Positions 3,001-58,479 of a DNA stretch of 64,000 bases are shown here, piece by piece. Source of the DNA: Marsupella aquatica. Taxonomy: Eukaryota > Plantae > Marchantiophyta. Position 1 is the stretch's first letter. Each line of letters begins with the position of its first letter. Where the stretch lies: the NCBI GenBank assembly GCA_973895155.1, contig OZ316894.1, positions 26,831,240-26,895,239 of the forward strand. The letters are read 5' to 3'. A program made the translations under genes and the position numbers. The notes under the pieces are model-generated. The model did not search any database and was not told where the DNA came from. It saw only the letters and a list, made by a program, of their open reading frames with translations.

Positions 3001-3110
3001 TCCAGGTGTTCCACGAGCTCCTGCCGTTGTATCTCGATCTGCCTTGGCCGCGTCCTCGGTGGAAATTCCCTCTGCCGCCTCGTTGAAAGTTATTGCTTCG
3101 ACCCCTATTG
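1..3110 (-). CDS. pol: Copia gag C-terminus plus pol (PR-INT-RT), apparently open to the window edge
   Basis: Hand translation gives the zinc knuckle, DSG protease, DDE integrase and YVDD motifs. No pol fragments appear in the ORF track, consistent with one frame running off position 1. Confidence 0.8.
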
Positions 3111-3798
3111 GGCTGCGTCCCCTGGTGCCTGCGCGGCCTCGATAGTTTCTTGATTCTCCCCTCTGTGGTGTGGCGTAGTTGGTCTCGGGAGCTGATGTGG
3201 ACGGGAGGGTCCCCGGTGGGCGTTTCTGCGAATTTTGTAGTAGTAGGAGCTGGTGCTTTTCAGCCAGCAGCATATGCGCAATTAGTTCGGAGTATTTGGT
3301 AAAGGCCATATTCCTGTATTGTGTAGAGAGGATAAGGTTTGAAGAATGAAGAGTTGACAGTGTTTTTTCGATCTGCTCTGCATCGTTTATTGGTTGGCCG
3401 CAGATGGCCAGTTGTGCGATGATCCTGAATAGCTCACTGTTATAATCTGCGACCGTCTTGTAGTCTTGGACGCGCAGATTGATCCAGTCGTGGCGAGCTG
3501 CGGGTAGGTAGATAGTTCGAATGTGATCGAAACGGGATTGTAGGTCATCCCATAGTAGCCGGGGATTGAATTCGTTCATGTATTGTTTCTTCAATGGCTC
3601 GCATAGATGGTGCCGAATTAGTATTAAGGCCTTCGCCTTTTGTGGGAGAGTAGTTCCCGCATCTGTAATGATCGTGTCTTGGAGTTCTTTTGCTGCGAGG
3701 TGGGCCTCAATATCTAGAGTCCAGGATAGGTAATTTGCGCCGTCTATACTCAGAGGTTGAAATAGGAGTTTCTCGATGGAGTTAGTGGGTACAGCCAT
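2935..3798 (-). CDS. gag: Copia gag N-terminal part; frame shifts near 3110 into the zinc knuckle/pol frame
   Basis: 287-aa ORF with Bianca-like gag motifs. After RGRSP the gag-like RG-rich sequence (NRGRSNNFQRGGRG...CFRCGTKGHIQKHC) continues in another frame. Confidence 0.85.
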   Translation of the reverse strand: MAVPTNSIEKLLFQPLSIDGANYLSWTLDIEAHLAAKELQDTIITDAGTTLPQKAKALILIRHHLCEPLKKQYMNEFNPRLLWDDLQSRFDHIRTIYLPAARHDWINLRVQDYKTVADYNSELFRIIAQLAICGQPINDAEQIEKTLSTLHSSNLILSTQYRNMAFTKYSELIAHMLLAEKHQLLLLQNSQKRPPGTLPSTSAPETNYATPQRGESRNYRGRAGTRGRSPIGVEAITFNEAAEGISTEDAAKADRDTTAGARGTPGRERTIIRIARSSTRTSTTNEI

Positions 3799-4101
3799 CT
3801 TCTATCAATTGGTCAATTGATCCTGTGATAATAACAATATATCCGTTCGCACTTGACTGAGTGATGATGTGGGGCTATGTCCCTTCTTGAGTCGTTGTCT
3901 CTCAAGTTGAATTCCTGGGTCTGCCTCCGCTTCTTCTATTGTCAGCCCCCTCAAATCCCAATCCGTGGAATCGTGGTCAAATTATACCACTCCCGATCGA
4001 TCTGCTGCCCGAAAAATTAGTTTCTATGGTGCTGAATCAATCGCCTTGGCATGAATGTCCCTCTGAAGCTTGTTTGAAAAAAAAAATTCTCGTTGCAGAC
4101 A

Positions 4102-4115
4102 TCGTGCTGATAACG
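4102..4115 (-). promoter_or_regulatory. Primer-binding site matching the anticodon arm of tRNA-Ile (half-tRNA type)
   Basis: + strand TCGTGCTGATAACG; tRNA-Ile(AAU) as recalled has TCGTGCTAATAACG, differing only at the wobble base. Minus strand CGTTATCAGCACGA follows the LTR directly. Confidence 0.75.
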
Positions 4116-4264
4116 TGTTGTAGCTCATCAACAACTAACTCCTTTATTCATTCCTCTTCCAATACATATAGTCCCTTAGGCAGGTAGGGTAGTTAGGCGG
4201 TTAGTCTTAACCAACTGTGGTAGGTCTAACCTTAGTTAGGCTAGAGTTAACTCGGGTTACAACA
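4116..4264 (-). repeat. 5' LTR of the copia element (149 bp)
   Basis: Bounded by TGTTGTA...TACAACA inverted termini and directly adjacent to the PBS; the partner LTR is not in the window. Confidence 0.85.
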
Positions 4265-4457: not shown

Positions 4458-7400
4458 CTACAGACTAACACACTCTGATGGCCAGAGCACAAGAGATCCT
4501 ACTGCATCTGCAATTATTTCCTGAGGTGGATCATCGTCTCTATTCGGAAATGGCAAATTACAATCAGATACAATCACTGTAGTCAACAACACTACTACAT
4601 GGTCATCCGGGACCACTTTGCCATGGAATTTTGCATGATCCGGTCGCAAAATGCCTGTACCCACACATACCTGCGAGTCATCCTCCCATGATAGAAGATT
4701 ATGGACTGGCTCTGCTGTGGCTATCACCTCCACCTTACCCTGGCTGTTTTTCTTGGCTTTCCTGGGTGGCTTATACATGACATTATTCATACCTTGGTTG
4801 CGAGTCATGACTTTGGCACGAGTGTTTTGTGCTGGTGATCGAGAATTGGCTACACTCTTCTTCAAAGAATCTGCATCCATATTTGACACTTCTGATTGTG
4901 TAGCAGGATTTCCCTGCGACATCATCTCAGTATCTGCCAACATTGTACTTGCTTCAATTGAAGCATCTACAATCTTACTTGCATCCAATGTTGCTCCCAA
5001 GTTTCGACGTCGCTTCACCCTACTCCCACTTGGTTGAGAGTCTGTCAACTCTGCATCAACTACAATTCAGTGTCATGTCCAACATAAGTCAATCACTCAT
5101 CACATGTGCTAAATGTACATGTCACCAACCACAAAGTTGTCACTATCTCCTTACCATTATGAACAACCTTCTTCCCCTTCTTTGCCATTGCCATATGCTC
5201 CATGTCTGCTTCTGTTGATCAATAAACACACCACAATATTCAGGTTGAATCTATTAACCACTGAATTGTTGCTCAACATTCATATAGAGGAATTTAAAGC
5301 ATCAGCTTACCTGATACCTCCTTGGCTATGGTCACTGAGGCACTGGGCACATCTTTTTCATTATTGCTCTTTGAATCACCTGATACATCAATCATGATGT
5401 CACTTCAGATCCCCGTTGATCCAACCAGTTCCGAGACCAGTTCTTACATAAAAGATTACCTCCAACTTGCTTAAGCTTCACAAACTCCATGCACTTTTCA
5501 AATGATTCATACTGGATTATAGCAGGTTACCTGTCTCATCAACCTTCTTGCCCTTCTGCTTACTGATTACAGGGTCCTTCTCTACCTCCACTCTTCCTGC
5601 ATTCAAACCATTCACTCAATTCATGAAAACTTACTTCTAACATTTGAACATAGGACACAATGAACAATGGGCCGGTGTCATTTCCATACCTGTGTCAGAT
5701 TTGCCAATTCCCTTTTTTGTTAACAAGGGCACACTTTGTACAATGTTGCCCTCATTGTTTGGTTGGGAACCACCCAATTTTTCAATCACAAGCTTGAAAT
5801 TAGATTCCACTGATGCAAGAAGGTTCGCTACAGATGCCTCCACAATATCCAAACGATCAGCCAATTTACTTTCCACTCGAGGGAGTCCACACTCTAATGA
5901 CTTCAACCGTTCACACATCTCTGTGAGAGTTGTAATAGTTCCCTGTCATAACACAGCTTACATATCTCAGATAACTGTCCCCAAGAACTGGTTGCTTACT
6001 TCCTACTACATTTCTTTCTGATGCTCAAGGCCAAATAGTCACAGAACATACAGAATTACAACATAATCACCTGTTTGGAAGTTACACTTGTCACCTCACT
6101 CCTTTGTTTCATGAACTCCTCTCTCACTTCTTGTGCTGATGGTTCTTCACCTGTCAATTTCTTCTGCAGTCCACATCAACATACATATGAATGAAACCAA
6201 GTGTTGATTGTCAATGAAAATGTAATAATGGTAGCAAGATGATAAGTTTGAGGCTTACTATCAGGCATGTCACTGCCTTACCAATTGTTCTTTCACTGGA
6301 GCATAACTTCCTCTCCCAGCCTGTGAAAGGTGTTTCACTTTGCCTCGAGCATTTGACATCAGTTCACTCTTGCTCTCTCCAGCCTCCGACATGAACCTTT
6401 TGATTAACCGTGTCCATTGATCCAGTTCCAATGATGGGGGTGGTGGCATTCTCCTGTTAGAACCATTGTCTATCCACATCCTTTTCAACCTATGCCTCTC
6501 TTGTTTCAAAATCCTCATTGCATAATCTGATATGCAATCTTCAACTGGGCCCTTACCATCATTACCAACATACTCCCACCGTTCAAGAATGTCCTTGCAG
6601 ATAGCAGCCCAATCAGCTTTGTTCTGACTCCTAAACTCTGTAATGCTCAAATCTAACCAACGCAATACTTCTCCTCTTAGGTCAGAATGCCAACGGTTCT
6701 TACCATCACATGTGGGAGTTATCCAACCTTCGGAATTCACTTCTACTTTACCAAATTTGTTACTGTCTCCTGCCTTGGTACTCCCTGAAGCGCTACTAGG
6801 TGTCCCTCCACGGCCTGATCTCCCCCCACGGCCTGGATTGCATTGTCCAAACCTCCCTGGAGTCCCTGCACATTTACAGGATCCATTTATAGTCACGTAC
6901 ATTAGGTAAGTATGAATCATAAATCCCGCTGCCAAATATACAGTGGACTTCAGAGCAATTCTGCAATGACCAAGTTACCTCTCCCTTGGCGCATAGATGG
7001 TTCTGGACCACCTGTCCTATTGCTTTGTCTTGATGAATTAGGGGCGTTTCTCCCGCCTGTGAATGATTGCCTCCTATCTGAACGTGGATGGCCTTTGTTG
7101 TTTTCGTGATTGTCCCAATCAGAGTCTGCATACCAACAGGTACATGCCACACTCATGGACCTGTAAGATAAACTCTTTGCCCTAGCTACACATCAGATAA
7201 GTGCATATTGAGCTAAATCTCTACTACCATCACAAAATCACTAGCACAAGGCACTTACTTGTCCAATCATCCTCCTCACCTTTCCATTGCCCTCTGTACC
7301 CGTCTCTACCACGCTCTGGGTGTTCATATTCATCCCATCCATCTTCTGCTCCATCATAGTCATCATCATAATCATCAGGCGTCCCTTGCCAATAACTCTG

Positions 7401-7778: not shown

Positions 7779-10700
7779 CTATTGCAAATCATCAACCTCA
7801 TCATATTCCATTTGCCCAGGTTCATCATATGTCTCTCTCAATGTTAAGGGGATGTAGTCAGTCCCTGCCCGAGTTGGAAGTACAGTCTCATGACTAGGAT
7901 GCTCGAATGCAGCATGGTCATCCAAACTGAACTCTACTTTACTTCCATCCATCCGCCTGTTCCGTGCTTGGCTATGGCATACCACCCTCCAGCCATGTGA
8001 CTCCTCCACATCTGCAAAGAAAGCCTGTTCAACTTGGCTAGGGAAAACAAAAGGCTCAGACCATTCTGGTACTCTGGACCTAAAATTGGCCAACAAGAAC
8101 CCATCATGATCACGCTTCATGGTGGCCCTTGGTCTCTGCCACTCTGATTTCACCCATGATCCCTTCATCAATATCACTGGGACACTTGTGTTACCATAAT
8201 TCAACACCCAAATGTCGGTCAACTCCCCCACGTAACCCATCTTCATCCACCCCCTCTGTTCTTAAGAGGTTCTCTGCTCAAACACAGAAATCAAACCACA
8301 ATCATATGATACACAATGGTCACCCTGCTCATCCCTCACTCGATAATGATTTCCATAAGCTCTCATCCGTTTGTAGGTCAGAATAGACAATCGTGGTGGC
8401 ACAGATAGAAGATACAAATCCTTCTCCATATCTGGGTGATGTCTACTATGCTCTCGAATTGTCACCCGAATCCACTGCTCGAACTGTGGGAAGGGATCCT
8501 GCTGCCCAGAGTGTGCAGCTTTTTGCATATCATATTCCCTGCATTATGAGGTACAGGCATAGTTAGGTCTAAACAACACATGACAACCTAAGATCACCCT
8601 TGGAACAGACAAGAAGCATCACAACAAAGGCAAGTCAATTCAATCACTCACCTCCACCATGGTTGCATAGGCTCTGTGTTTGCCAGCACATATGAATGAG
8701 CCTTGTCTCGAATCGCAACAGGCAGCTGAACAGCACGTCCCACACCTTCAACAACCTCGCCACTCACTCCATCATCTTCACCAGATTTCCAAACTCTTGT
8801 CATAGCTTCACCAGACCCAGCCATGTACTCTGTTAGGAATCCCAACGTCTCATCCTTAATGTACCCCAATGCCATGGAAGCCTCTGGCCTGTAGTATGTT
8901 CTCACATGACCTTTCAACAACTTCATGTATCGCTCCATAGGGTACATCCATCTGGTACTGACTGGCCCATACTGCCCTAGCTCTTCTACCACATGGATTA
9001 GGAGATGAGTCATAACATCAAAGAAAGCAGGGGGGAAGTATATCTCCAAGTCACAGAGGACATAAGCAGCATCCTGCTTCAACTGCTCCAATCCTTGGGG
9101 ATCCCACACTTTCACACATATACGGCGAAATACATTGCACAGTCGAAGAATGACATTACGGACTGGTTTCTGCATGAGACCTCTGAGGCATAGGGGCAGA
9201 ATGTGCTGCATCAACACATGGTAGTCATGTGTTTTCATACTGCCAAGTTTATTCTTTGTAATATGCTTCTTGAAGGCACCAGCATAGCCAGAGGGCACTT
9301 TCAGACAGCTCAATCTATACAAGAATGTCTTCCATTCATCCTGTGTGCACACATAGGGAGCTTGGAACTTGAGAAGTACATTGGGATTGCTTGCATGGGG
9401 CTTCAACCAAAGGTGAGGGCGAATCCCCTTCTGTTGCATATCAGCTCGAACTGCTCCTGTATCTTTCTCACCCGACAAGAACTTCAGCAAGCTCTCACAA
9501 ATATTTTTCTCAATGTGCATGACGTCCACATTGTGTTTGCTGGGCTCGAATTCCTGCACTCCACAAAGCAAAGAATTCAACAACAGAAACACTAATTAAC
9601 CACATAGGAGGATTGTAACCAACATCAATCCACCATTGCTCCAATCTAAAATTGCAATCATACAGGGGCTGGAGGCTAAGTACATTACCCTCCAGTACTC
9701 CAACTCCAAGTCCATCAAGGTCTGTCTTTTCACACTGTGTTTCACCACTGGATCCTCAGGTTCTCGATCAGTGGCACTTCTCTTGTCCCAATCAGCCTTC
9801 CTGGCTGCCCACCTCAGGACTTGCTCTCTGGTGACCCTCTGTGGTGGGCCACGAAGCTCTGTTTTGTTGTTGAAGTGTGCAATTTGAGACCGTGTGTGCC
9901 TGTAAGGATGATCAACAGGCAGATACCTTCTATGCCCCTGAAATTTCATACTGTGCAGGGCATGCGACCACTCACTTGTCACATTTTTCCCACATGGTGT
10001 GCACCCCACATAGCCCTTTGTCACTCGTCCAGATATGATGCCATGGCCTGGGTAATCTGCTATATCCAGCAAACAAATTGCATGCAGTCTAAAGGGGCTG
10101 GGTCGAAGAAGCCCCTTCAGAACATCATGGGTTAACACCCCTTCTATCCACAAAGTCTTCCACTCTTCCACTGCTGGAGCCAACATGATATCTATGAATT
10201 GCTCGGTCACAGAAGTTGGTCCAGGGATTAACAGCACCATCATGACAAAAAACCTCTTTGTAGTCATCCATGGGGGAAGGTTGTAATTTAGCAGCGTAAC
10301 CGGCCAACATGAATAACGGTTGTTTTTGTCTCCAAATGGGTTTACTCCATCCAGTGATAGACCAAATCGAAAGTTCCGCTTCTCTGCAGCAAACTGTGGC
10401 CACCTCTCATCAACAAATTTCCAATGGTTGGAATCTCCAATGTGACGCTGCAGGCCATCACTGCTCTTGTTATCAGGAGTCCATGTCATCAGCTTGGAAA
10501 TGGCAGGGCATCTAAACAGACGTTGTAGTCTAGGAATGAGAGGAAAATGACGAAGAACCTTGGCAGGGTGTGTACATTTCCCTACATTCTTGTACCTGTG
10601 CTTACCACAATGAGGGCATGTCAATTTATCTGCATGCTCTTTGCGAAAGAGAACACACCCATCAGGGCATGCGTCAATAGACACATAGTTCAGCCCAAGG

Positions 10701-11479
10701 TTAGACATCAATTTCCTAGCCTCGTACATATTTTTTGGAATTGAATTACCATCTGGTAACACATTTCGGCGCAGGAAGGTCAACAACTCTGTCACAAATA
10801 TATTGGGAACATTGTGATTGCCACAGATGTTCAACAACAACACGACAAAACCCAGCTTGGAGCAGTTTGACCCCTCGTAGATAGGAATGCAAGCTTCTTT
10901 GATGTGTTTTGGGCCCCCAAACACCCACTCCCTCTCTGCTGCACCTTCCCCAATGTCAAAGTCAGGTTGAGCTTGGCCGTCGCCAATGTGTGGCTGCGGT
11001 TCATTGTCCTCTTCTGATTCCACTGTGTCATAAAAAGCATCAAGGTCTTCAAAAATCTCTTGAACCATTCTTGGGACATCCATGCCACCGTCCTCAGTGA
11101 CTGCCTCTGCATCTCCATCTTGGTCATCCACGTTCTCATGTTGGACCCCAGGACCATCCTCTGCACAGTCTATGTCCTGCTCTACGTAGTCTCTACGCCT
11201 AGCTGTATTAGAATCCACAAAGTCAGCTCTCCACTCTTCATCAGAGGAGTCTTCTTCTGCTGGTACATTCCAAACCCTCCACCGAGGGTGCCTTTCATGC
11301 CGCAGCAGGTGAAGGTGCACAGTGTTCAAACTCAACGACTTGAATCCTTGGCACTGTGTGCATGGGCATCTCATCCTCCTACTCCTACCTTGGGCGGCCC
11401 GGGCTTGTTCACGCATCCACAATTTAGAATCATGATGCCTAATCCTAAATGGGTTGTGAAGAGGCAACCTTGGAGCCAT
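7779..11479 (-). CDS. CACTA TnpD transposase of element A (introns; one in-frame TAA at 8262-8264)
   Basis: Motifs RCPCTQC, IDACPDGCVLF, LRHFPLIPRLQRLF, GLSLDGVNPF, DVMHIEKN, FFDVMTHLLIH, RWMYPMERYMK, EPFVFPSQVEQAFF. Introns near 9555-9690 and 8540-8650. ORFs 8528-8262 and 8246-7779 are in frame across a single stop. Confidence 0.92.
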
Positions 11480-11805: not shown

Positions 11806-12375
11806 CTACCACATCAAATACGGATACCAATCCTGTTGTCGATGCCACTCAGCCCTGAGGTACTCAGGCATGTACATTAAGTCATCAAGGTCTAAACCCT
11901 GCTCATGCCATGGTGGTCTTCGATCCGTGCCTACAAGCAGTGGCAGCAGTGCCCTCCATGGTGCACATGTTGCTACCAAGTCCCTCCACTGGGTACTAAT
12001 TAGTCTATATTTGCAGATATCTTGTGCGCCAGACACCACAAGAACCCTCGGCCAGACATGTGTAAGAACTATATCATCTGCCAAATCAGGCAACAAGGAA
12101 CCACCTACAGCATCGTGCTTGTCTAACTCATCTGCTGAAAAGTAAATGTCCTCTTCCGACTGTGCATCCTCATTCACCACAGCATTCACAACACATCCAA
12201 GGTCTGCAGGCATTATCTCGGATGGAGCTACACTCTGTCTGGTTACCAATCCACACAAGTAAGCCCAAGCAGTAGCCATGCACGATGCAACCCGTAGGAG
12301 GACCCTACATAGGGCCTGACGGTCTGGAAGAGGCAGCATACCCACCAAAGTCTTCAGCCAAACAGAGCCCAGCAA
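11806..12375 (-). CDS. F-box-like accessory protein of CACTA A
   Basis: LLPDLADDIVLTHVWPRV...KYRLISTQWRDLV resembles an F-box. Hydrophobic N-terminal segment. Homolog at 27878-28402. First ATG is at about 12339. Confidence 0.7.
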   Translation of the reverse strand: MLGSVWLKTLVGMLPLPDRQALCRVLLRVASCMATAWAYLCGLVTRQSVAPSEIMPADLGCVVNAVVNEDAQSEEDIYFSADELDKHDAVGGSLLPDLADDIVLTHVWPRVLVVSGAQDICKYRLISTQWRDLVATCAPWRALLPLLVGTDRRPPWHEQGLDLDDLMYMPEYLRAEWHRQQDWYPYLMW

Positions 12376-12515: not shown

Positions 12516-13379
12516 TCACTCTCTCCCACCTTTGCTAAGCATACATCTCCGCTGAATCTTGGAGGGCCAGGCCTCAAAAATATCAAAGTCCCAAGCATTC
12601 TGTCGCTTCCCTCTAGCTGCTGATTCCAGAAGCCAATCAGGGGAAAGCACCCAAAGATTGTTGTTCATGACAAAATCACGCACTGTTGTCTTAAAGAATT
12701 TTCTGCATATTTTCATGTATGACAGACCTACAACATGAGTGGAGGTTTCTGTTAGACTCTCCTCCACTGTCCCACCTAGCTCAACAACTATAGACTTGTA
12801 CAGTCTGCACTTAGTCTCCCCAATTCCTTCTTCTGCAAATACCACACTGAACCCCTTCATAATGGTATTTCTCTCCTTGCCATGCTCATTCAATATAGCA
12901 TCTGCACGCATAGGATGGTGTCCTATGTTGACAACAGGTCCATATTGGACAGAAGCAAAGTTGGGTTTCTCTGCCGCTGCTTCATAGGCTTCCTTTTCAG
13001 CCAAAGCCTCTGTAGTGGCCTCCTCACTCTCCCACAACTCATATTGCTCAGTACTCTGTACACACCTATGTTTAACAGAATCGGTCAGCCAAGAGACTTC
13101 AACTACTTTTAGACCTTGGTTGGTAATGGCAGAATCAATGAAGGACCATGACCACTTGTTCATCACATCCAGCCATGTCCCCGCAACAACATGTGTAGTC
13201 TGTGGAGTGATGTCCTTGACTTCAGTCCCATGGAACTCTGAGAATCGTTTTTGTACGATTGGCCAACTCACTTGGGTGAACCCATAGTGGCCAAGAATCA
13301 AAATGGCTTTGATTCCAGCCAACAGAGGCGGGTGGTCAACCTTTGTACGTTTCCTAGAGGCCATGTACACACGGGCCAC
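12516..13379 (-). CDS. Tandem BRCT-domain accessory protein of CACTA A
   Basis: Two BRCT-like repeats (TTHVVA...VVEVSWLTDSV; LGGTVEESLTETSTHVVG...LSPDWLLESA) and a basic NLS-like RKRTK. First ATG is at about 13364. Confidence 0.82.
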   Translation of the reverse strand: MARVYMASRKRTKVDHPPLLAGIKAILILGHYGFTQVSWPIVQKRFSEFHGTEVKDITPQTTHVVAGTWLDVMNKWSWSFIDSAITNQGLKVVEVSWLTDSVKHRCVQSTEQYELWESEEATTEALAEKEAYEAAAEKPNFASVQYGPVVNIGHHPMRADAILNEHGKERNTIMKGFSVVFAEEGIGETKCRLYKSIVVELGGTVEESLTETSTHVVGLSYMKICRKFFKTTVRDFVMNNNLWVLSPDWLLESAARGKRQNAWDFDIFEAWPSKIQRRCMLSKGGRE

Positions 13380-13962: not shown

Positions 13963-14643
13963 TCAAAGCCAAGAAATGTGATCTCTCATGGGAGTGTGCA
14001 AAGTAGGATCTATGGCATGGCGATGACAATAGAAGATCCATCGATCAACACCATGTGTAGAGTGATCATAGATGTGTCTGTCACAAGCATAGCCTTCTGC
14101 TTGACGCTCCTTCAAACAATGAAAGTGCCACATGGTGGGACACCTAACACAGTGGACTATGTCCACCCAGAAATCTTCATCGTGCTGACCACATGCCTTG
14201 CACTTATGAAGTGGGCAAGCTGTGGCAAGATCGGGCAAACATGAAAAACAAAAGAACCTCACACAATATCTGTCAGGGCATTTCCTAACAAGTGGTGGAG
14301 CATCAACAGAGCCCTCATAAGACCCCAACTTCCCACACTGTGCACACTTAGCCTGCTTCTCCAAACAATCAGTGCACATCCAGCCTCTCTGGTGTGCTGA
14401 CGGGAGGCCCACCCCTGGACAGTTGTTTTCTGCAGCAAGGTCAGACTCCGGGTTGAGGTGGAAATGCCTCATGCAAGGGCCCTCACATATGGCTAAGCCA
14501 CCACCATCGTCACAAATGGCACAACAATGAGCTGCCTTCTGGAAAATCTGACTTGCGGAGAAGTTACTACCATCTGGCCCAACTACACCTGTGTTGCTCA
14601 CCTCTGTCCCCCGCTTCTTGGCTCGGATTTTAGGGCGTGCCAT
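13963..14643 (-). CDS. Stand-alone EDM2-like composite PHD-finger protein (CACTA A)
   Basis: CAICDDGGGLAICEGPCMRHFH...CPLHKCKAC...CVRCPTMWHFHCL...IFYCHRHAIDPTLHTPMRDHI follows the Cys/His pattern of the EDM2/NSD-type PHD cassette as recalled. Confidence 0.85.
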   Translation of the reverse strand: MARPKIRAKKRGTEVSNTGVVGPDGSNFSASQIFQKAAHCCAICDDGGGLAICEGPCMRHFHLNPESDLAAENNCPGVGLPSAHQRGWMCTDCLEKQAKCAQCGKLGSYEGSVDAPPLVRKCPDRYCVRFFCFSCLPDLATACPLHKCKACGQHDEDFWVDIVHCVRCPTMWHFHCLKERQAEGYACDRHIYDHSTHGVDRWIFYCHRHAIDPTLHTPMRDHISWL

Positions 14644-15471
14644 GCCTACGCATGAGACAGATAGTACAATTTAGCAGAGTGCACGGACAATACAATTTAG
14701 TGCAGTGTACAAAAAGTACAGTGTAGCATATAGACTAGAGTGGCAATTGCTACTGCAATGAAATGTTCACACACATGTGCAGAGTAGACATACTTTTTGG
14801 TTTGTTGAGCCCACACTAAAAACTGATCCCCTCGTACAATAGCTCCACCTACACCTCAATTTTGTGGCTATGATTCACCAAAGGAGATCTGCAACAAGAT
14901 TTAATGCATTTGAATCATATATAACAGTCGTGACATGTAAAACAGGCATTTTTTGAACAGGATTGGTATCAAGCACTGTGATCAGGGTTGTAATTTATAC
15001 ATCCTAAATAGGCTATGATAGTGAATGAGACAAATAAGTTAGGCAGAAATCACTTTTTCCAGGTTATCACATGGCCCATTAATTCCAGTCTTTGAAAGGA
15101 GACTTTTAAGTGAGCTTGCTAGCCTCTTAAATTAGGATATTGTACTTAGTGCAGCCATAATAGGATAAGTTATGTACTGTTGACCCTAAACCCTGGACCC
15201 AAAATTGGTCATAATTCAAAATCTTAAGTAAATATCCTCTCTGTTCAAGTCAAAGTGTTAAGTTATAGGTCAATGGTCTCTGGTTTGTGCATGCGGTGTG
15301 ACAAGTGGTCCTCTAGAGCGTGTGATCCAAACATGTGTAGACACCAAAGTGACCGGTGGTGGGGTCTGGGAGGGCAGGACAAGTGACATCGCCAGGCACA
15401 CTGCAGGATGGCGAGTGGTTCCAGATGATACATTGTGCTCTGTGAAAAAACCGACATCCAAGAGAACGGTC

Positions 15472-18400
15472 TGTGATGCCTAGACAGGAATCACTCGGCC
15501 GGTTAAGTGGGTAAAGCAGGAAGGCACCCTAGAAACACCTTAGTATAGTGACAAAACAAGGAAAATATAAACAATTAGGGGCAACCATGGAACCCGGGCC
15601 GAGGCCGGAGGTAAGGCTAAGGGTGAAAACCCGATTAGGGTTAGGGCGCGTTAAGCGTCGGCGGCTAGGAAGGATCAACGGGAAGAAGGACCGGCAAAGG
15701 AGAGGGGTAAGGAGCGCTTGCAGGAGATAGTGGCTCATTTGCGAGCACGAACTAGGCAGACGACTACGGGAGGCCAACTACTGTCAGCTGCTTAGGCAAG
15801 CACTCGGGGAGAGAGTAGATACCGACGATCAACCTAAGGAGGGTATGAGCAACGTCAATCAAGCGGCACATTTCTGGGGATGCCTGTTCGAACGGGCAAC
15901 TGAGTACATCAAGACTTACGAGGACGAGGAATCAGAAAGGGCAGCTCGAGAACGGCAGGAGCTCGCTCGATTGTGGGAGCTACAGAAGACGGCTTTCTTA
16001 GGAGGCGAACTCATCAAGGACGAGTTCCTGTGGACGCCTACTTCCAATCAACTCGACGATCTTCTGTTTTGCAAAGACAGCGTCGTCGGCATCCGAGAGG
16101 CCATCAAGAACTGCAACGACATACACTGGGAATTAAAGGGTAGCACGGAAAGGTGGACCCAGGCAACGGTGCTAGGAGAAACCTCCACGGCAGCAGAGAT
16201 GAAGAGGAAGGGAGCCGTCAACGATGAAGCCACCCCGGCAAAAAGAACGAGGTCGGCGGCACCAAAGAAGCCAGCCGAGCAGCAGAGCAGGAGGCAGGGA
16301 GAAGCCGAAGAGGAGGAGGTCGATCCCATCAAGGCCATTCCAACCAGGGATGACACCTGGAAGGGCTGGGCGGCAACCCTACCGGTGGAGGTGCAACTAC
16401 ATTTTGCACGGGAGGAGGATGCATGCTTTACGGCCATGCAGACCAAGAAGTACCAAGGCTTCATGGCCGGACCCGGCTTGGAGGCCTTTGTAAGATTACC
16501 ATGGCTGAAGCCGGAGGTACCGGAGTCAGACCTATTAGAATTCGTGGGGTCATGGGAACCCGAGACCAATTGCACGAGGATATATGGGAAGGATTTCTAT
16601 CTTACTCCCAAGGTAATTGCCGAAGTGTTTGGCCTGCCGATAGGCAATAAGACCAAAGTTGATACCAGGAAGACCTTGCCTGACAAGGAGTTCCGGTCGT
16701 TCCCCGGGCCATCAACGAAGAATGGCTTCTTCCGGAACACCTGCACCAACCCGCACATAGGAGAGATGATCGACTTCTTGCGGGTGACCATGCATTGTAA
16801 CTTGCCGAGGGCAGAGATCGGCAAGGCACAGGTCTATCTGGCAGAAAGGCCAGACCCAAGCCGGGACTACAATGGGTACCTCCTCAACCAATTGAAGAAG
16901 ATCTTAAAGGAGGAGCAGCAGGTAATCGGCATGGGGAGCGTGTCGCGGCTTGGCTATCACATGCCGCTGTTGTGCCGGTATGCCAGAGGTCAGACTTTTG
17001 CCCCAGTACTTCCCCTGCAGGTAAGGGCACCCGAGGAAGCTCCAACGCCGAGGCCATTGGCTGAGAAGCCTCAACCACCTGTTAGTCCTACGATCGAGCA
17101 GGTGTTTAGGCCCAGGAAGGAAGACTTGCCGATGCAGCAACCAGGCATGCAGAGTCTGCTGAAACTACTGGAGAAAGAAAAGAAATCGGCATCGGCAACA
17201 ACAACGGCAATGGCAACAATGCAGGACACTACTACAGAGGTAGGCCTACACCGGCTCACAAGAGAAAACCCCTTTGCTGGAGACAAGGAGAGAATCAGGC
17301 CGGAATCCAAGCCAGGTGTTCGAATGTACGTGGGAACCTCAAGCTCCGAATCTGAGGCAGAATTGCCTCAAGCTCCTACCGACGAAGAGGAGAGGGAGAA
17401 GCCGGACGTCCAAGAGGTAGAGGAGGCAGTGGAGGACTGCAGCCATGATAATTCCGGCTATGGGTCGGACCATCACGTTCCAGGAGTAAGGACCTGTGGC
17501 CGGTTTGTCCCCACACTTCCAAGGGTAGTGCGAGGGGACCCCAACCAGCAGAGTAGCCCTGAGTCTCCCCCACCAGATGTTGCTCCCCCGAGCTTCGACG
17601 GCATAAAACAGACGGTGCAGGAATTTCAGGAGCGAATCAAGCAGGAGGAGGAGGCCGCCCTGGCTAAGGAAAAGGATTTACCAGGAGGAGATTGGCCGGA
17701 GGACATTAGGCGGCTAGCCGAAAAAGGAAGCAAACCTCTAGCCACGATTGAAGAGATCCGCATGACGGCTTGGGAGCAGAGGCCACGATGGGCGATGCCG
17801 ATCACTTCTACTTACTCCACCTACGCTAAGAATAGAGCCATGGAGTATGGTGAGATGTGTGGGGAACTTGCGCTCGGCATCTTTGGAGAGGAGTTGGAGG
17901 TAGGACCCTTTTTCCATAGGGAGCAGTTGGAGAAGCACCAATTAGAAGAAGCGGTGGCTTTAGAGAGAAGCAAGAAGGACGAGGTCATTCGGCGGCTTAG
18001 GAGGATGGAAGCCGAGATTGAAGATCTAAGGGCGGCCAAGAAAGCCCAAGATGAACTGCGGATTAAACGACATGAGCTGAACATCATGCAGGGGCAGTTG
18101 GACACCGCGCAGGCTGATAATCAGAATATCAAGGATAAACTGACGCAGACGCAGGAAGAGTTGGCCGACACGATCAAAGAGAGGGAGAAGTGGAAGCAAG
18201 AGCTGAAGAATACAGAGGAGGCCCACATAACAGCCAACAGTCGGGCCATGGCGGAGACCCAAAGAAAGGAATGGGCGTTGAAAGGGGAGCTCGAGAAAAT
18301 CCGCGGAGCCCTTGAGCAGAAGGAGGCCGAGTTAGGGAAATCCTATCAAGGGATTATGGCGCTGCAGCAGGAGCTTGCGTCCCTGACGGCCAGCTTCAAG

Positions 18401-20131
18401 GCCGACCTAAGGGAGAAGGACGAGATGCTCGAACAGACTTACGCCAAGATGAACCAGATGGAGTCTATCATCATTGCAGAGCTCGACAAGGAGCTAAGAG
18501 CAACCCGGGAGGAGAGGGCTACCTTGAAGAAGGAATTGGAGGAAGCCCACAGGGAGCAAGAGGAGGCCAAAAACGAGCTGGAGGGGGCACGTAAGGACCT
18601 GGATGAAACCCAAGAGGAGTTGGAGGAAATCACGAGGAAGATGGAGAACCTACAGCGGCGGGCCGACAACCAAACAGAGCGGCTGAAGAAACAAGCCGCA
18701 GTATTTAAATGCTTAGCTGCAGCAGGTCCATCTCCCGTTGGGACAAACCAGTTACCAGGGGTGGTAATTGCCGAAGGACAAGCCGCGCCACCTGCACCAG
18801 TGCCGGAAGTAAGTGGGAAGGGGAAGGGACCAGCTGCCGAGCCACCAATGAAGAAGAAGCGGAAACCTTCAGGGTCAAGGAGTAATACGACTTCACAGGC
18901 CGTGGTGATCAAGGAGGTAGACCCAGCACCGACCCCAGACAGGGTCACGGCTAAGGATCCAACTACCCTAGGGGAAGGGGAGGCCGAAGCCGAGGGAGTG
19001 GCTGAAGCCGAAGTCGTGGGAGTGGCTGAGGCCGAAGCCGTGGGTATTGCCGAGGCCGGTGTCGAGGCTGAAGCCGAAGGTGGACCCAGTCAGGCCGAGG
19101 GAGAGTTGACTCGGTCAAGGGCAGGTAATCTGTCAGTAGGCGGGCCAACGGCAGTGGCTGAGGAGGAAGTGTTGGGGGCGTCCATTGAGGATCCACCACC
19201 GGTGTCGTGACGGTGCAAGGGCGCCGTTCCTTTTAGGGAGGGCGGACGTGGAGGGAGGAGGCGTGAGTGGGCAGGGCGGGCGCGGATCTCCATGTTTAGG
19301 ATTAGGATTAGAACCAGGAGCGGCCCTGACACTTAGCTTAGTGGGATTGCGGTTCCACTGGTAGGAGCAACACTTGTGCTCCTGCCTTACTGTACATAGG
19401 TAGATTCGGGCAAGTAGATTACTGTCAGGTAGATTAGGCTTACGATGCAAAGAATGGCGGATCCACTACCAGGATAAGTACCTGGGCAGCGGGGAGCTCA
19501 GGGCCTCTTCTTTAGCAAGTTTTTAGTTTGCACCAGCCGGGCTGGGATCAAGTAGTACGAGAAGCTCTCGGTTAGTCATACAGTGACCCTTGTGTATATT
19601 CATGTTTCCTCATGCCTAAGAGCTGAATAGAGTTGGCCTCACGGCTTAGTTCGCAGAACTTGTGTATGAGATGTACTGTTTGTATGGCAAGTGCATGGTA
19701 TGACTCAGTCAGAATGAGTCATTTTGCTATTTGTGTGTCGCATTAACTTGTGTGAAGAGTGCCCACATCAACAGAAGGAAGGAAAGTAAGCAGGGGAGTG
19801 AGAGTTGGATGTGTCGAGCTGAGAGAGGTCTTAGCGGCTTAACCAAGCCTATTGGGGATCATTCCGGCGGCGGAATCCAAACATACCTAACAAGACGGAG
19901 GGGAAGACAGGGGAAGACGGGGGAAGGCCTATATTAGGCCGGCTACGTATCTCATGACCCGATGAAGGATCTGTCCAGTATATGTGTGTAAAATGTTAAT
20001 AGTAGTAGTAGAAGGTTAGCAGCGTCCCATGCCGCTAAGCCGCGGAAACGGCCTCGCCAAGCACGAAACCTGCGGGAATCGGCTTGAGCTGGGGGGTTTC
20101 TTGGGTTTAGGGAGCCATGGGACGCACCACA
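15472..20131. mobile_element. 4.66-kb insertion with TG...CA ends and 5-bp TSD (solo-LTR-like)
   Basis: Termini TGTGATGC...GCACCACA; flanking CGGTC at 15467-15471 and 20132-20136; no internal terminal direct repeats seen. Segment 19363-20131 has a second copy at 38559-39316. Confidence 0.85.
15845..19210 (+). CDS. 1121-aa protein: plant-mobile-domain-like segment, acidic/Pro-rich linker, long coiled coil
   Basis: Uninterrupted ORF. LLEFVGSWEPETNCTRIYGKDFYLTPKVIAEVFGLPIG resembles the PMD core. E/K/L-rich coiled-coil-like region at about aa 690-955; NLS-like KKKRK. Confidence 0.75.
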   Translation: MSNVNQAAHFWGCLFERATEYIKTYEDEESERAARERQELARLWELQKTAFLGGELIKDEFLWTPTSNQLDDLLFCKDSVVGIREAIKNCNDIHWELKGSTERWTQATVLGETSTAAEMKRKGAVNDEATPAKRTRSAAPKKPAEQQSRRQGEAEEEEVDPIKAIPTRDDTWKGWAATLPVEVQLHFAREEDACFTAMQTKKYQGFMAGPGLEAFVRLPWLKPEVPESDLLEFVGSWEPETNCTRIYGKDFYLTPKVIAEVFGLPIGNKTKVDTRKTLPDKEFRSFPGPSTKNGFFRNTCTNPHIGEMIDFLRVTMHCNLPRAEIGKAQVYLAERPDPSRDYNGYLLNQLKKILKEEQQVIGMGSVSRLGYHMPLLCRYARGQTFAPVLPLQVRAPEEAPTPRPLAEKPQPPVSPTIEQVFRPRKEDLPMQQPGMQSLLKLLEKEKKSASATTTAMATMQDTTTEVGLHRLTRENPFAGDKERIRPESKPGVRMYVGTSSSESEAELPQAPTDEEEREKPDVQEVEEAVEDCSHDNSGYGSDHHVPGVRTCGRFVPTLPRVVRGDPNQQSSPESPPPDVAPPSFDGIKQTVQEFQERIKQEEEAALAKEKDLPGGDWPEDIRRLAEKGSKPLATIEEIRMTAWEQRPRWAMPITSTYSTYAKNRAMEYGEMCGELALGIFGEELEVGPFFHREQLEKHQLEEAVALERSKKDEVIRRLRRMEAEIEDLRAAKKAQDELRIKRHELNIMQGQLDTAQADNQNIKDKLTQTQEELADTIKEREKWKQELKNTEEAHITANSRAMAETQRKEWALKGELEKIRGALEQKEAELGKSYQGIMALQQELASLTASFKADLREKDEMLEQTYAKMNQMESIIIAELDKELRATREERATLKKELEEAHREQEEAKNELEGARKDLDETQEELEEITRKMENLQRRADNQTERLKKQAAVFKCLAAAGPSPVGTNQLPGVVIAEGQAAPPAPVPEVSGKGKGPAAEPPMKKKRKPSGSRSNTTSQAVVIKEVDPAPTPDRVTAKDPTTLGEGEAEAEGVAEAEVVGVAEAEAVGIAEAGVEAEAEGGPSQAEGELTRSRAGNLSVGGPTAVAEEEVLGASIEDPPPVS

Positions 20132-23100
20132 CGGTCATCCAACTCTAGGCCAGAAGCCCTACAGGCAGGACAGTCATATTGGCAACTGTGCACACACCCT
20201 TGGGCCCTAATTTGTGGCGGGTCATGTATGAGAGACAGAAATACCAAGGATGTTGGGAAGGGTGGAGAAGCAGGTACAGGCCGGCTGTAGTTGTTCCTGG
20301 CAACAACTGGGTACTCAAAGTACCATGCAGACTGGGCTGGAAGGATCCCAAGTCTGACATACTCAAGGCGCAACATCTCTGCCTTGCGTGCAAGCCGCAC
20401 ATGTTCATCGTTGCGGGTCCTCACCATAAGTGTTGCTTTTGTGGAGATGTCGTGTGTTCACGTCCTCTGATAAGCACCTTCGATCAGCAAGGTGAGCAGG
20501 AGCTGTACTTGCCTCACCAACAGCAACCAACCTTAAATTATCAGTTCCCACTCACTGTGTCATTCCATTGGTTCCAGCTAGGGGTCACAGTGTAAACATA
20601 GCATGAAACACTCCTAATCAACTTGCTTACAAACTGCAATATCCAGAAAGAGTGAAAGTCTCACCCTCCAGTGAGCAGCAGAGAGGTAGTTCACTAGATG
20701 TGTTGATGTGCAGTTAAACCTCCACTATTGCTTACTTCTGGTGTATGCTGCTCAGAAGAAGACATATTAGTAGCAGCAAATTGCAAATAATGGCCATAAG
20801 CAAACCGTGAGAGTTTGCAGAATGCTACGACAAATCCATCACAGCAGTGCTCCATAGGAATGAAACCAAGCAAAATTTGGTGACCTCGGCCAATGACAAG
20901 GCCAATGTAGTGAACAATCCTTGACCGATCAGGATATGGATTGGAATTACAATTAGTCAGCTCTTCTTCTTTGTTTTCTAACTCTGGGGGAAATGAGCAT
21001 GACCAGGGAATTCTTTGAGAAATAGAAGTGCACAGGGAAAATGAAATTGGCTCATTCAGCTGCGCAAGACCGGCCATTGCAGCAAACTTGGACAGTTGTT
21101 CCGCAATACATAAAATACCCTGACTTACATGCAATCGATACAATCTGCTTCTGTTGGCTGTCCTATAGCTCACGGTAGTGCCGTTGGGATAGGGTAAGTG
21201 AATATTGCCATAGCTGAAGCACATTGAGCTTGCAGCAAGAAGTGAAGGAGCATGGCCAAAAGCAGAAAAGACAGACAGGTTTTACAAGAAGAAACTAACA
21301 ACCGCCAATCTGCTCAAATCCGCTGCATAGATCAAACCCTCCAAACTACACAGCCCTCCTTTGAAAACAATCCAATGTGCTTTGGCTGGTGGATGACAAG
21401 GACTAGGAGAAGAGGAAACGTCTACACAATCAATCCCAATGACGGGACACAGAGACCAGGCACAGAGAGGATTTGTGCTTAGACAAAAACCACAAATTGT
21501 AGCATGGGCGCCATAGCATTGGGCGGCAATGGGAAGAATTACATCAAATGAGTGGACAGAGAATGAACAGTCCGGTTATAGGCAAACAGCGACTGATGCC
21601 CTGATGCAATGAAACACGCATTGACATAGCGGAGGGACATAAAAACTACATAAGCCAACTTACTGACCTTTTAAGGCCCACAATTTCAAGGGGAGGGACA
21701 AAGACAGCAATAATAGACGCAGAGACAAAGCTGTACTCTGTCAATTGAGTAGGCAAGTGGGTGGGTGAAGATCAACAACCAATGTAGCAGCGCAACCAGA
21801 GTAGCAACAAAGAAGCAGGTTGCCCTCAGTCTCCTATTTTTCAAGCAGCTCGTGCTCGCGGTCAATCTCCTATTCTGCAAGCAGCTCACGCTCGTCCCTC
21901 TTGTTCTGCAAGCAGGTCATTCTTGTCGGCGATGGTGCAAGCTGTCCTCCTAAACTCTGACACTCAAAATGAAAAGACCAAGCACCTCCAATCTGTTTGA
22001 TCCCTTCCGCAAGTAGCCGAGCGGCAGACGATAATGTAGGGATCAAGAACCAAGTGCCAGGCGGACATTGCACAAAATGAGGACCGGGGGCAGAGACAAA
22101 ATCTACCGAAATCTACCGAAATCTACTTCTTGGGGTCCAGCCCACGGATGGACATCATGCAAGGTGGTCAAAAATGGTAAGTGCAATTGTTGGAGAGCTG
22201 TACTCGCGATTACTAACGGTGCATCCACAAAACGCGTCATCAAGTTGTCAGTGCGGCCACAACAATTTTGACAGTCTCAGGATCACAGGTCCACAAACAA
22301 GTTGCAAATGAAGACACACAACGTCCAGGAGGGAAAGTCCGCAACACTAACCCTTTGTAAAGCCCCCGAGCTTACCTTCTAGCTGCCGACGCAAAGAGAA
22401 AACCTACTCGGACACTGAAGCAACCCTAAACTCAAAGTCTCACCTTAGCGCAACAACTCCTGGATTGGATTCAGCTAGCTCAGGCTCAATGAAGCATGTC
22501 GCCTCGGGCTCTCCGGATCCTCCCAAGGCAGCAAACAAGTTAGGGTCCACGGTCCTTGTACCTTCACCGCACCGTTGTGTCCTTCCCAATGCCTCCTCTG
22601 TAGTTGCGTCTTGTCTGCAACTCTACAGCTCCCCGTGTTGCTCTGCCGCACTTAGTTATATTCCAACGCCCGATCGTGACCAAAAAGAGTTTTCTCCTGC
22701 TGGACAGCACTAGGCATTTGTTCAATCTCTTGATCACGCGTAAGCAGCTACAGGTATGAATCACTCAGTTGGCAGCTCAATACGCTTACAGCAAGAGGGC
22801 GCAATAGGTAGAAGCTCGCGCTACCTAGACCAGCACAAGGACAAAGCATTAACATTGAAACTGTACCATGGAGCTGGAGAAAACCACAGAGTAATTGAAG
22901 CCTAACAATACCCTTCTTAGCTCCCGACTCCAAACTCTCGGCTCCCAGTTTGCAAGAACAAGCACTATGAAAATATGGATTCCCACATTGACTGTGTCCG
23001 CAGAACAGATGCAACCCGCATGCAACTTCACCAGCTCAACGGCAGCTTGACAACTGAAGGACCTCCCAATGAGCCTCACGGCCTCCCGATGCTCGTTATG

Positions 23101-24812
23101 GGTGCAGCAAAAGGGTCTATACCACAACTGTGACCGAGATTGTCACCCAAAACCTTGAAGAAACCCCAACCTCCGACTCCTCAAACTCCGACAAGCTCCT
23201 CACGAACGTTGCAGCAGCCACAACCTTCTTCGCCCTACCAGCCAAAAACTAAATGTCCCTAAAGGAGATCGAGCAGGAATGCAGGTCTATGAGTAGACTG
23301 CAAGCGCAAGGTTAGATCACTGCAACTGCCTGAACACTGCTCCTCGAGAGCATAAACAAGCACATAACGCGCGGGAAGTTCACTCCGCAATGGTCGCAAA
23401 AAGTGGGCAACACTGAAAGGAAAACCCTACGTAAAACCCCGAACACTCCACCCCTCACGTTCTAAGTTCAATGACAATGGCGAAAACTCCAAAGAGACTC
23501 CCAAAGTGAAGTTTAGTGCCTGAAACCGAATTAGGGGAAGCCACTCAGCCTTACCGTTTGAGTGAGCCGTTGAGTGTCACCCAAAGTGGGACAAAGCTAC
23601 AAAGTGTTACTGCATGGCCAACTTAGGCAATGAATGGTCATATTTGCACATACATGGTCGGTAGTGACATTTTATTGCACGCCGTAATCAGGATTAAGGT
23701 TGCCCAACATTATATCCGGTCCTAAAATGCAATATTCCCGGTGCAAGAATGTGACCTAGCTCTAATGTATGAAAAAGGACCGGTACAAATCTACCTTTGT
23801 GCATCTTGACCTTTTATAGATGGATTTAGTAATGGCCAAGAATATCTTGACCATCCCTCCATGGTCCAACCTCCATGAACCCCACTTCATTAAACCCAAA
23901 ACCATTTTGGTCACAAATAAGGAAATTTAATGAGTTATGCCCCTTGCTATCACCCTCTTTATAGATTTATTTTTTTGTTTGAAATTTTACATTTATTCCG
24001 CGTGAACCCCACGGATGGGGGAACCAGTAGGCCAAATGGCATCATAAAACCTCAACACCCAAAGGAGGCAATAACAAAGAGTTACTCAACCAGGGTCATC
24101 AGATCAGGCAAAGATTGCGAAGCCGTTCTTCTAGTGGTCCATGCAACAAGTAACAACTAGGGAATAAGCACTAGAAGGCGCAGTAGGTCAGCATAGTGTA
24201 AGTGTAAAGTGTCAAAGCATTGTCTAGTACTAAATTAATCCACCTGATTAGTAAGAAGGGGGTGTATACTGTAATGGGAAAAAGAAAAAAAAACCAAGGC
24301 ATGAGCAAGGGCCACCAAGAGTGGTGCAGCTATAAGCTATAGGGATTGAACACAATGCGGGGGGGGGCAGTGGCACTATGTATGAGGAAATCACGGGAGT
24401 ATCGGTGTCAAATGAGTCGACAAAACTCCCAGATAGCCACACAGTATAAATCAATCTCACAGAAGGCTGCCATCAATGGAGGAAACAATTTGACACGACC
24501 CACATCTGAGAGTGTGAATTCGCTCGATCTCCAGCAGTTCTTTGGCACTCGATAGACGTCGGTGCTTTCGGCTCAAAGATGAAGGAGAATTACCCCTCCT
24601 CAACATAGAGTGAACATTACCCATGATGTGCTAGACTATATATTCACCCTTCACAAAGTAGCAAGGTTACTTCTCATAGTCTTTTAGTGAACCATAAAAC
24701 TCTCATAGTCTTTTCTAGTCTTCAACAAAACCGGTGCAATGGGTGCGAGTCGTTTTAAGTATGGAAAAAGGACTTAGTGGGCATAGTCCTATAAGGTATG
24801 GTCTAAATTGCC

Positions 24813-24828
24813 CCGGTTTCTACTAGTG
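24813..24828 (-). repeat. CACTA terminal inverted repeat (5' end of element A)
   Basis: Reverse complement reads CACTAGTAGAAACCGG; it lies about 12 bp inside an intron (GTACATG donor) of element B's transposase. Confidence 0.85.
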
Positions 24829-24839
24829 AGTTATCATGT

Positions 24840-27877: not shown

Positions 27878-28402
27878 TCAGTACAAATACCACTCCTGTG
27901 CTCGATGATAGTCAACCCTCAGGTACTCAGGCAAGTACATTAAGTCATCTAAGTCTAACCCAAGATCATGCCATGGTGGTCTACGATCAGTGCCTACAAG
28001 TAGTAGTTTCAATACCTTCCATTGTGGGGACATGGCTACCAAGTCCCTCCATTGGGTACTAATGAGTCGATATTGGCAAATGTCCTGCGCTGATGACATG
28101 GGAAGAACCCTAGGCCATACATTTGTGACTACTAAATCATATGGCAAAACATGTAGCAAACTACTACATTCCTCATCATCCTCTTCACACCCGGCTTCAC
28201 ACTCATCTGCCGAAAAGTAAACCTCCTCCTCATCTACCTTACAATACTGTACAACAGATTCAAGGTTGACAATGGTTCTGCCAGGTGGGGGTACAAATTG
28301 TCGGATTACCAAACCAACCAGCCAAACCACCACAAAATACATCCATGTAGCCACCCGTATGAGGAGTCTACATATGGTGTGGCGGTCTGGAATAAATGAC
28401 AT
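27878..28402 (-). CDS. F-box-like accessory protein of CACTA B
   Basis: LLHVLPYDLVVTNVWPRV...YRLISTQWRDLV...LLVGTDRRPPWH; clear homolog of 11806-12375. Confidence 0.72.
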   Translation of the reverse strand: MSFIPDRHTICRLLIRVATWMYFVVVWLVGLVIRQFVPPPGRTIVNLESVVQYCKVDEEEVYFSADECEAGCEEDDEECSSLLHVLPYDLVVTNVWPRVLPMSSAQDICQYRLISTQWRDLVAMSPQWKVLKLLLVGTDRRPPWHDLGLDLDDLMYLPEYLRVDYHRAQEWYLY

Positions 28403-38540: not shown

Positions 38541-38558
38541 ACAGGTTTTCTTCTAGTG
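38541..38558 (-). repeat. CACTA terminal inverted repeat (5' end of element B)
   Basis: Reverse complement reads CACTAGAAGAAAACCTGT; sequence switches abruptly to the LTR-like repeat at 38559. Confidence 0.85.
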
Positions 38559-49393: not shown

Positions 49394-49692
49394 ACCACGC
49401 GTTAAATCTACACTTTGTTAATGCTCCCCGATCGTCTTGGGGCCCCCGTACACTGCCCGTCCCAGTTCCCAATGTTGCTGCCCGCTCCGGCCCGAGTTTG
49501 CCAAAACATAAACTCAAAGTTGACGGCACAAAGTTGATCGAGCCGGGGCATGTGACAATATGGTAGAGTTTCGGTTTATGTTCCGGCAAACTCGGTCTGG
49601 AGCGGGCAGCAACATCGGGGACTGGGACGGGCAGTGTACGGGGTCCCAACAAGATCGAGGAGCATTAACGCGGTGTAGATTTAATGCGCGGT
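49394..49692. mobile_element. MITE with ~120-bp terminal inverted repeats and 8-bp TSD
   Basis: Termini ACCACGCGTTAAATCTACAC...GTGTAGATTTAATGCGCGGT; TTTGCATC at 49386-49393 and 49693-49700. Confidence 0.88.
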
Positions 49693-50349: not shown

Positions 50350-50379
50350 CAAGGATTAGCTCAAACAAGGAGAGGGAAA

Positions 50380-58470: not shown

Positions 58471-58479
58471 CCTTTCACC

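Follow-up and report, generated by a model that had tools for sequence, protein, structure and literature searches.

A CACTA transposon gene family with an EDM2-type PHD cassette and a histone H3-like N-terminus

In the window (the whole stretch of 64,000 nucleotides of Marsupella aquatica DNA analysed here), two CACTA transposons each carry a gene for a small protein in which an EDM2-type PHD cassette follows a conserved motif resembling residues 1-9 of histone H3. Judged from the sequences, the two genes belong to a selected accessory gene family of bryophyte CACTA elements, which is of EDM2-like descent and is not a full EDM2. Tentatively, we propose that the protein is a chromatin-docking decoy, whose PHD cassette would dock while its H3-like tail baits host enzymes, and that it would thereby help the CACTA element to resist silencing.

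Both genes are open from ATG to stop, and in both intervals the plus strand is closed in the given frame:

14643 to 13963, minus strand: copy 1 of the PHD gene, in CACTA element 1, 226 aa
14614 to 14640, minus strand: H3(1-9)-like motif of copy 1, codons 2-10, 5/9 residues identical to H3
29682 to 29029, minus strand: copy 2 of the PHD gene, in CACTA element 2, 217 aa
29653 to 29679, minus strand: H3(1-9)-like motif of copy 2, codons 2-10, 7/9 residues identical to H3

The layout of copy 1 is the H3-like N-terminal 9-mer, a linker and an EDM2-type three-finger cassette (about residues 41-226). Both ORFs match the Pfam models PF23011, PF22908 and PF23004 in this order, each below the Pfam curated cut-off (best E 1e-5). 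The same Pfam search found no SET domain in either ORF, and no DNA-binding domain was found in the transposon PHD protein. A sequence-only reading had described the two as copies of one protein, made of a basic N-terminus plus the PHD cassette. Both ORFs are real and lie on the minus strand, but at 39% identity over 228 columns they are paralogues in two different CACTA elements, not near copies. The cassette was recognised correctly, but the N-terminus is the conserved H3(1-9)-like motif, which that reading had missed. Both ORFs do end at the motif that it quoted, IYC..H.ID..L.TP.RDH, but this string blends FYC..H.ID..L.TP.RDH of copy 1 with IYC..H.ID..L.TA.HDH of copy 2. In both copies, ISWL follows the DH of this cap as the last four residues before the stop.

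An AF2 model of copy 2, built on an alignment of 50 relatives, had a mean pLDDT of 88.9 and a pTM of 0.82, with pLDDT below 50 at residues 1-8 and 20-23. As modelled, the transposon protein would be a natural version of the EDM2 PHD cassette that is compact and folds well. An earlier model from only 7 sequences had a poor pLDDT of 63.5, and fold searches with it were uninformative. A fold search with the better model returned PZP domains (E 6e-5, low TM) and the NSD PHD-C5HCH region (prob 1.0), and the comparison with NSD2 gave a VIA Z of 5.8 and an rmsd of 2.5 with 74 aligned. When the profile of the 50 relatives was searched against PDB sequences, the best solved matches were NSD2/NSD3 PHD1-3 (E 2e-26); only NSD and AIRE chains were returned, and plant EDM2 was absent from these results. 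We take the modelled PZP and NSD PHD matches as fold kinship only. An Atlas search gave leads under 0.9 only, and short N-terminal queries, too short for E-values, had no matches among PDB sequences.

The protein had been called transposon-encoded, and both window copies indeed lie inside nested CACTA elements with transposase domains and a shared gene order:

24811 to 24828, minus strand: terminus of element 1, starting CACTAGTAGAAACC on the minus strand, CACTA end at 24828
15313 to 20427 (20427-20132 + 15471-15313), minus strand: cargo A of element 1, interrupted by an insertion of 4,660 bp
12516 to 13364, minus strand: BRCT cargo ORF, in element 1 only, 282 aa, two BRCT stretches
11806 to 12339, minus strand: F-box-like cargo ORF of element 1, weak F-box-like stretch (E 0.1), with a counterpart in element 2
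7779 to 11479, minus strand: TnpD-type transposase exons of element 1 (Transposase_21 E 9e-60, DUF4218 E 2e-27, DUF4216 E 7e-6), approximate exon limits
4458 to 6974, minus strand: likely TnpA-type exons of element 1 (Transposase_24 E 0.014, below cut-off)
38540 to 38558, minus strand: terminus of element 2, starting CACTAGAAGAAAACC on the minus strand, CACTA end at 38558
30511 to 30963, minus strand: cargo A of element 2, a Cys/His-rich ORF of 150 aa that adjoins the PHD gene on its upstream side
27878 to 28402, minus strand: F-box-like cargo ORF of element 2, counterpart of the ORF at 11806 to 12339
24823 to 27600, minus strand: TnpD-type transposase of element 2, truncated by element 1 and, compared with element 1, changed in frame near 26.5 kb

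The assignment to CACTA rests on a CACTA-starting terminus (one end for each element) and on the Transposase_21, DUF4218 and DUF4216 domains. Matching second ends of the two elements were not found within the 64-kb window. Since the terminus of element 1 lies just past the DUF4218 exon of the element 2 transposase, element 1 is nested in element 2. The terminus of element 2 is preceded by subterminal repeats of about 705 bp and about 124 bp at 34.2-38.3 kb. Both elements have the order cargo A, PHD, F-box-like, TnpD; the full order in element 1 is cargo A, PHD, BRCT, F-box-like, TnpD and then the likely TnpA. Transposase segments of the two elements are mostly 54-61% identical. The PHD genes have CpG observed/expected ratios of 0.29 and 0.35, similar to that of TnpD (0.33) and unlike that of a host PPR gene (0.77); these low values fit a long residence in methylated DNA.

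Several other features of the elements and their surroundings were noted. The BRCT cargo ORF may connect element 1 to DNA-break signalling. The C-terminal half of the F-box-like ORF (about 66% identical in amino acids and 76% in DNA over 300 bp) is conserved better between the elements than the transposase. Cargo A had no Pfam match at E 5 and starts with the faintly H3-like MVRTR in both elements. The insertion that splits cargo A of element 1 (15472-20131, 4,660 bp) has TG...CA ends and a 5-bp target duplication, and contigs of three of the four sequencing runs join across it. It holds a 1,159-codon coiled-coil ORF (15731-19210, plus strand) with no informative Pfam match, and a solo LTR of very large size is one possible identity for it. 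A second copy of its last 765 bp (90%) lies at 38562-39316, the insertion site of element 2, and the summed contig depth of the insertion, which is not a copy number, is several-fold to more than 10x the CACTA depth in three of four runs. A Copia-type element (1-4261; gag 2935-3801, minus strand) has inserted immediately beyond the likely TnpA exons, at a boundary drawn by eye. Two DYW-type PPR genes of moss-like appearance (45724-48003, plus strand, and 52589-55186, minus strand) form a large inverted duplication at 43480-57360, whose arms are about 88% identical and differ by one 303-bp repeat unit. At 57659-63378 there are broken-up Gypsy-type ORFs (gag, RT, RNase H and integrase), together with a tandem array in which a 161-bp unit is present 5.9 times.

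Word-based searches, a full HMMER scan and cluster look-ups recovered 31 relatives from Logan, JGI and ENA contigs, which make 33 family sequences with the two window copies; four of the 31 are near-duplicates and several are fragments or frameshifted. Related loci numbered one in metagenome contigs and none in viral contigs or prokaryote genomes. PF23011, PF22908 and PF23004 were matched by 19, 17 and 11 of 20 aligned members, respectively. The end motif is kept in 21 of the 33 sequences, and 17 of these 21 stop at most three residues after it. As only the two window genes have visible transposon context, the transposon status of the relatives is extrapolated from these two; L001 (1,495 bp), the one relative with visible DNA context, is frameshifted and its contig carries no transposase. 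The two window copies fall in different subclades of the family.

Copy 1 was covered in all four runs from three studies, by 66-1,092 contigs each. Among the 40 differences shown of 102, 35 fell inside the ORF (14 synonymous, 21 non-synonymous, 0 stops). For these 35, pN/pS was 0.39 (binomial p 0.007), a rough ratio because the differences mix paralogous copies. All three of the listed indels lay outside the ORF. Across the family, the gene survives at 37-45% identity with its Cys ligands kept. Given how many family sequences keep the end motif and stop close to it, the ORFs are not due to chance.

We placed the cassette by phylogeny against both EDM2 and NSD proteins. In IQ-TREE trees, all 17 sampled members formed one clade, with support 99/98 in a tree of 40 rows and 100/100 in a tree of 39 rows that leaves out the long row P0169. 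In both trees this clade sat inside the EDM2 family and outside NSD, the NSD side consisting of only two NSD-like rows, both long branches. It joined the liverwort EDM2-like proteins that have no methyltransferase-like domain, with support 99/99 (40 rows) and 93/99 (39 rows). Four host rows lacked the pattern by which the tree input was trimmed, and the rows included no named moss host protein. The family stem is long (2.3-2.8 changes per column). The gene was likely captured once, long ago, from an EDM2-like host gene. Thus the earlier assignment to EDM2, as opposed to NSD or an unrelated zinc finger, is borne out, and the conserved start Met and stop position make a stand-alone protein the most likely form, as it had been taken to be. 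The stand-alone form alone is not unique, because PHD-only EDM2-like proteins exist in grasses and Marchantia.

The cassette keeps some EDM2-type marks and differs in others. The finger 1 His5-Cys6 spacer is 11-12 residues long in 23 of 30 members, mostly 10 in hosts and 2 in both NSD-like rows. The EDM2-type C-terminal cap HxI...TPxRDH is retained (cap motif in 21/33). Finger 2 has been rebuilt: its His is replaced by Cys in 28 of 33 members (it is His in 151/162 hosts), and the host insert after this site is deleted. Only about 40 residues precede the first Cys, with neither an RFD (PF12047) nor an acidic region, and because only four residues follow the DH of the cap, there is no methyltransferase-like (ELP) domain. 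A search for longer forms returned 20 matches, all EDM2-like or SET proteins at 24-38% identity, which is weak evidence on fusions. Before finger 1, Gln stands at -6 in 31 of 31 members and His at -2 in 27 of 31. The Asp at -3 of PHD1, present in 99 of 129 hosts, is lost, and with it the acidic tract: the median net charge of the segment before PHD1 is +1 in the family and -12 in hosts. The acid before the first Cys of AIRE-type PHD fingers pairs with unmodified H3K4, and in an alignment with AIRE, the family His at -2 faces the AIRE acidic stretch before the first Cys. Because PHD1 has no acid at this place, histone reading may be altered or lost. With the RFD, the methyltransferase-like domain and the acids before PHD1 gone, neither H3K9me2 reading nor poly(A) read-through should therefore be assumed; the H3K9me2 reading that had been carried over from EDM2 is weakened by these sequence changes.

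The N-terminus was compared in 23 sequences from 11 clusters, aligned in a register that was set without H3. P0009 and P0010 (no anchor residue), P0002 (likely an internal Met; 2/9 identities), P0045, P0090 and P0123 (no N-terminus) and the near-duplicates P0021, P0022, P0192 and P0193 were left out of the count. The H3 reference was taken from a locus with a Pfam Histone match of E 2.5e-47 (L008). The 23 N-termini share with H3 A1 in 17, R2 in 23, T3 in 4, K4 in 22, Q5 in 4, T6 in 0, A7 in 16, R8 in 3 and K9 in 13 cases; like copy 2, P0008 is identical at 7 of 9 positions. Pro is the commonest residue at the T3 position, the K9 side has no equivalent of the Arg in H3's RK, and none of the 23 matches H3 at tail positions 10-12. 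In 14 of the 23, Met immediately precedes the motif; five carry Met-Pro-x and four have other leaders, so that an N-terminal Ala is probably not free in every member. The motif precedes the cassette by 29-48 residues.

Under the family profile, H3 1-9 ranked among the top 5 of 22,680 permutations of its residues (p 2e-4), and 5/5,040 and 5/1,260 when position 1 or positions 1-2 were left out; column permutation over the 11 clusters gave p 9e-5, all for an H3 test that was chosen after the motif had been noticed. None of 143,894 host 9-mers scored as high as H3 (13.3), and the best non-family 9-mers came from Marchantia P0088 (12.7) and Calypogeia P0047 (11.7). At least four H3 identities were found in 20 of 23 members; among host sequences, 42 of 4,901 basic 9-mers and 8 of 161 N-termini reach this number. 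A classical NLS core K[KR]x[KR] occurs in only three of the 23. On these comparisons, the N-terminus is a statistically clear, conserved H3(1-9)-like motif in register.

The element may have inherited the motif from its host ancestor instead of evolving it as a weapon. The top non-family 9-mers sit upstream of the PHD in P0088 and in Calypogeia P0047 and P0187, though not in P0049 and P0052, and P0047 and P0088 share an RxKxxAxK/R motif at this place. Among 161 host proteins, 15 start with MAR. Six liverwort and lycophyte EDM2-like proteins (P0023, P0047, P0049, P0050, P0052 and P0055) start with MAR[TV]xxxA and then a Trp; in the host family this start could be a regulatory peptide that resembles H3. 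Three PHD-only EDM2-like proteins (P0065, P0072 and P0094), two of them named as Eleusine, start with MARxK and a basic run, likely an independent arrival at the combination of motif and PHD. In a separate observation, 31 IMG/VR contigs (L002-L032) matched the H3 N-terminus pattern, and 3 of the 11 that were translated have an insertion after a K27-like motif.

Taken as a chromatin-docking decoy, the protein would be expressed from its own Met and dock on chromatin through the predicted histone binding of its PHD cassette, to a mark that need not be H3K9me2. Its H3-like tail would then be a decoy for host enzymes that read or erase H3K4/K9 marks, and the element would stay active. Our first candidate for the putative host target is an LSD1-like demethylase such as LDL2, because LDL2 removes H3K4me1 downstream of H3K9me2 (available text of PMC13157976) and its animal relative LSD1 is blocked by SNAG tails, which are N-terminal H3 mimics (available text of PMC5066116). 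According to the accessible part of bioRxiv 2026.08.24.746577, TnpA-activated Spm elements keep H3K9me, which leaves room for a second, histone-level factor. Land-plant DNA transposons are described as biased to H3K27me3 in the accessible part of a preprint (10.1101/2024.09.22.614159). More doubtful, though possible, is the specific version in which an EDM2-type reader, once captured by a bryophyte CACTA, became a fake H3 tail tethered to the chromatin of the element itself, where this tail would trap host H3K4/K9 enzymes or be methylated by them.

Other explanations account for parts of these data. The tail could be an internal ligand that fits the PHD pocket of the same protein, giving autoinhibition or head-to-tail oligomers, and be inherited from the host as part of a gated reader that responds to its preferred mark only. 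An AR-x start accompanies the cassette in full-length liverwort and lycophyte proteins, in PHD-only grass proteins and in the transposon proteins, and the element kept exactly the motif and the cassette at the spacing given above. We nevertheless regard this as unlikely: the family keeps K4 and K9, while position 4 is V, L, A or H in the N-termini of non-seed hosts. The low pLDDT of residues 1-8 predicts no docking of the tail, which as a model result is weak evidence.

Next comes a transpososome targeting adaptor, which would read chromatin at donor or target sites and recruit TnpA/TnpD, with the BRCT ORF serving break repair and the F-box-like ORF turnover. The PHD gene is linked to transposase in two diverged elements and lies beside the BRCT ORF in one of them; PHD fingers occur in other transposases (Rehavkus; extracts of PMC6446971), and interactions between transposase and accessory proteins are reported for CACTA (extracts of PMC12973397). 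This would leave the H3-like tail without a role, and we consider it improbable.

Still less probable, in our judgement, is a reader-only EDM2 that masks H3K9me2 or competes with host EDM2-like proteins, its basic start being a patch for localisation or DNA binding. The cassette is intact and there are no effector domains, and recognition of H3K9 methylation has been ascribed to the EDM2 PHD domains (PMC4980392, in the portion available). However, PHD1 no longer has its preceding acids, finger 2 differs from that of hosts, and the strict register of A1, R2, K4 and A7, together with the poor NLS fit, argues against a merely basic patch.

Poly(A) read-through, in which the protein would recruit the host ASI1/AIPP1 complex so that a long multi-gene transcript escapes premature ending in heterochromatin, is very improbable. 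The elements are long, their several ORFs share one orientation, and most ORFs of both elements have an AG at most 40 nt from the ATG; polyadenylation at distal sites is favoured by the AAE complex (accessible parts of PMC9292364 and PMC10241880). But the protein has neither an RFD nor a methyltransferase-like part, and the latter is already missing in its nearest host relatives, which makes this the least likely of the three roles (masking, competition, read-through) that the sequence-only reading had offered.

That the gene is a captured fragment without a role, or supplies the final coding exon of a longer spliced product, is hardly credible: an AG lies 2 nt (copy 1) or 8 nt (copy 2) before the ATG, both in phase 1 to the frame, but the leaders, the conserved stop, the pN/pS and the Cys ligands kept across the family stand against it.

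If the tethered fake H3 tail were true, it would be counter-silencing at the histone level, not the DNA level. The plant transposon counter-defences VANC, TnpA and a rice microRNA act on DNA methylation, and described histone mimics are viral or host proteins, as far as the available text of the sources goes. A 25-kDa transposon protein combining a histone reader with an H3-like tail would thus be a new route in the arms race, and the AR-start motif of non-seed EDM2 proteins may regulate the host protein. Literature titles and listings, a scope that excludes Repbase reports, subscription journals and supplements, contained no CACTA-encoded EDM2-type PHD and no transposon histone mimic. A term count did not find PHD in the retrieved text of the transposon papers PMC12973397, PMC13547354, PMC13317346 and bioRxiv 2026.08.24.746577.

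Among known proteins, Arabidopsis EDM2 and land-plant EDM2-like proteins share with the transposon protein the composite atypical PHD cassette, the long finger 1 His5-Cys6 spacer and the HxI...TPxRDH cap; the best named long match was Selaginella EDM2 (P0023, E 6e-29). Unlike EDM2, the transposon protein has no RFD, acidic tract or methyltransferase-like domain, carries Cys for His in finger 2 with the insert deleted, and has Gln -6 and His -2 before finger 1, an H3-like start and a location in a transposon. The nearest group in both trees consists of Calypogeia CAM6087769, Riccia KAL3685775, and Marchantia MPTK1_1g03210 and MPTK1_4g03050, liverwort proteins without the methyltransferase-like domain that end soon after the cassette. 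Three of these four are 692-768 aa long with the motif internal, whereas MPTK1_4g03050 is a 280-aa PHD-only protein. P0047 shares the segment before the PHD with the transposon family and has an RFD-like region (E 3e-11). PHD1-3 of NSD1/2/3 have the same finger order and are the best solved relatives, but the transposon protein has no SET domain and NSD falls outside its clade in both trees.

As element-encoded accessory proteins that favour their own element, VANC of VANDAL and TnpA of Spm/CACTA are the closest functional likeness (available text of PMC12973397, PMC6446971 and bioRxiv 2026.08.24.746577). They recognise DNA motifs and act via DNA demethylation, whereas the transposon PHD protein has a host-derived histone-reader fold and a putative anti-silencing role. 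A short H3K4-like linear motif at a protein end is also found in the SNAG domains of SNAIL/GFI1 and in NS1 of influenza H3N2 (available text of PMC11738798 for NS1). SNAG belongs to host transcription factors and NS1 is viral; here a DNA transposon encodes the motif, with Lys4 kept, in one protein with a PHD reader.
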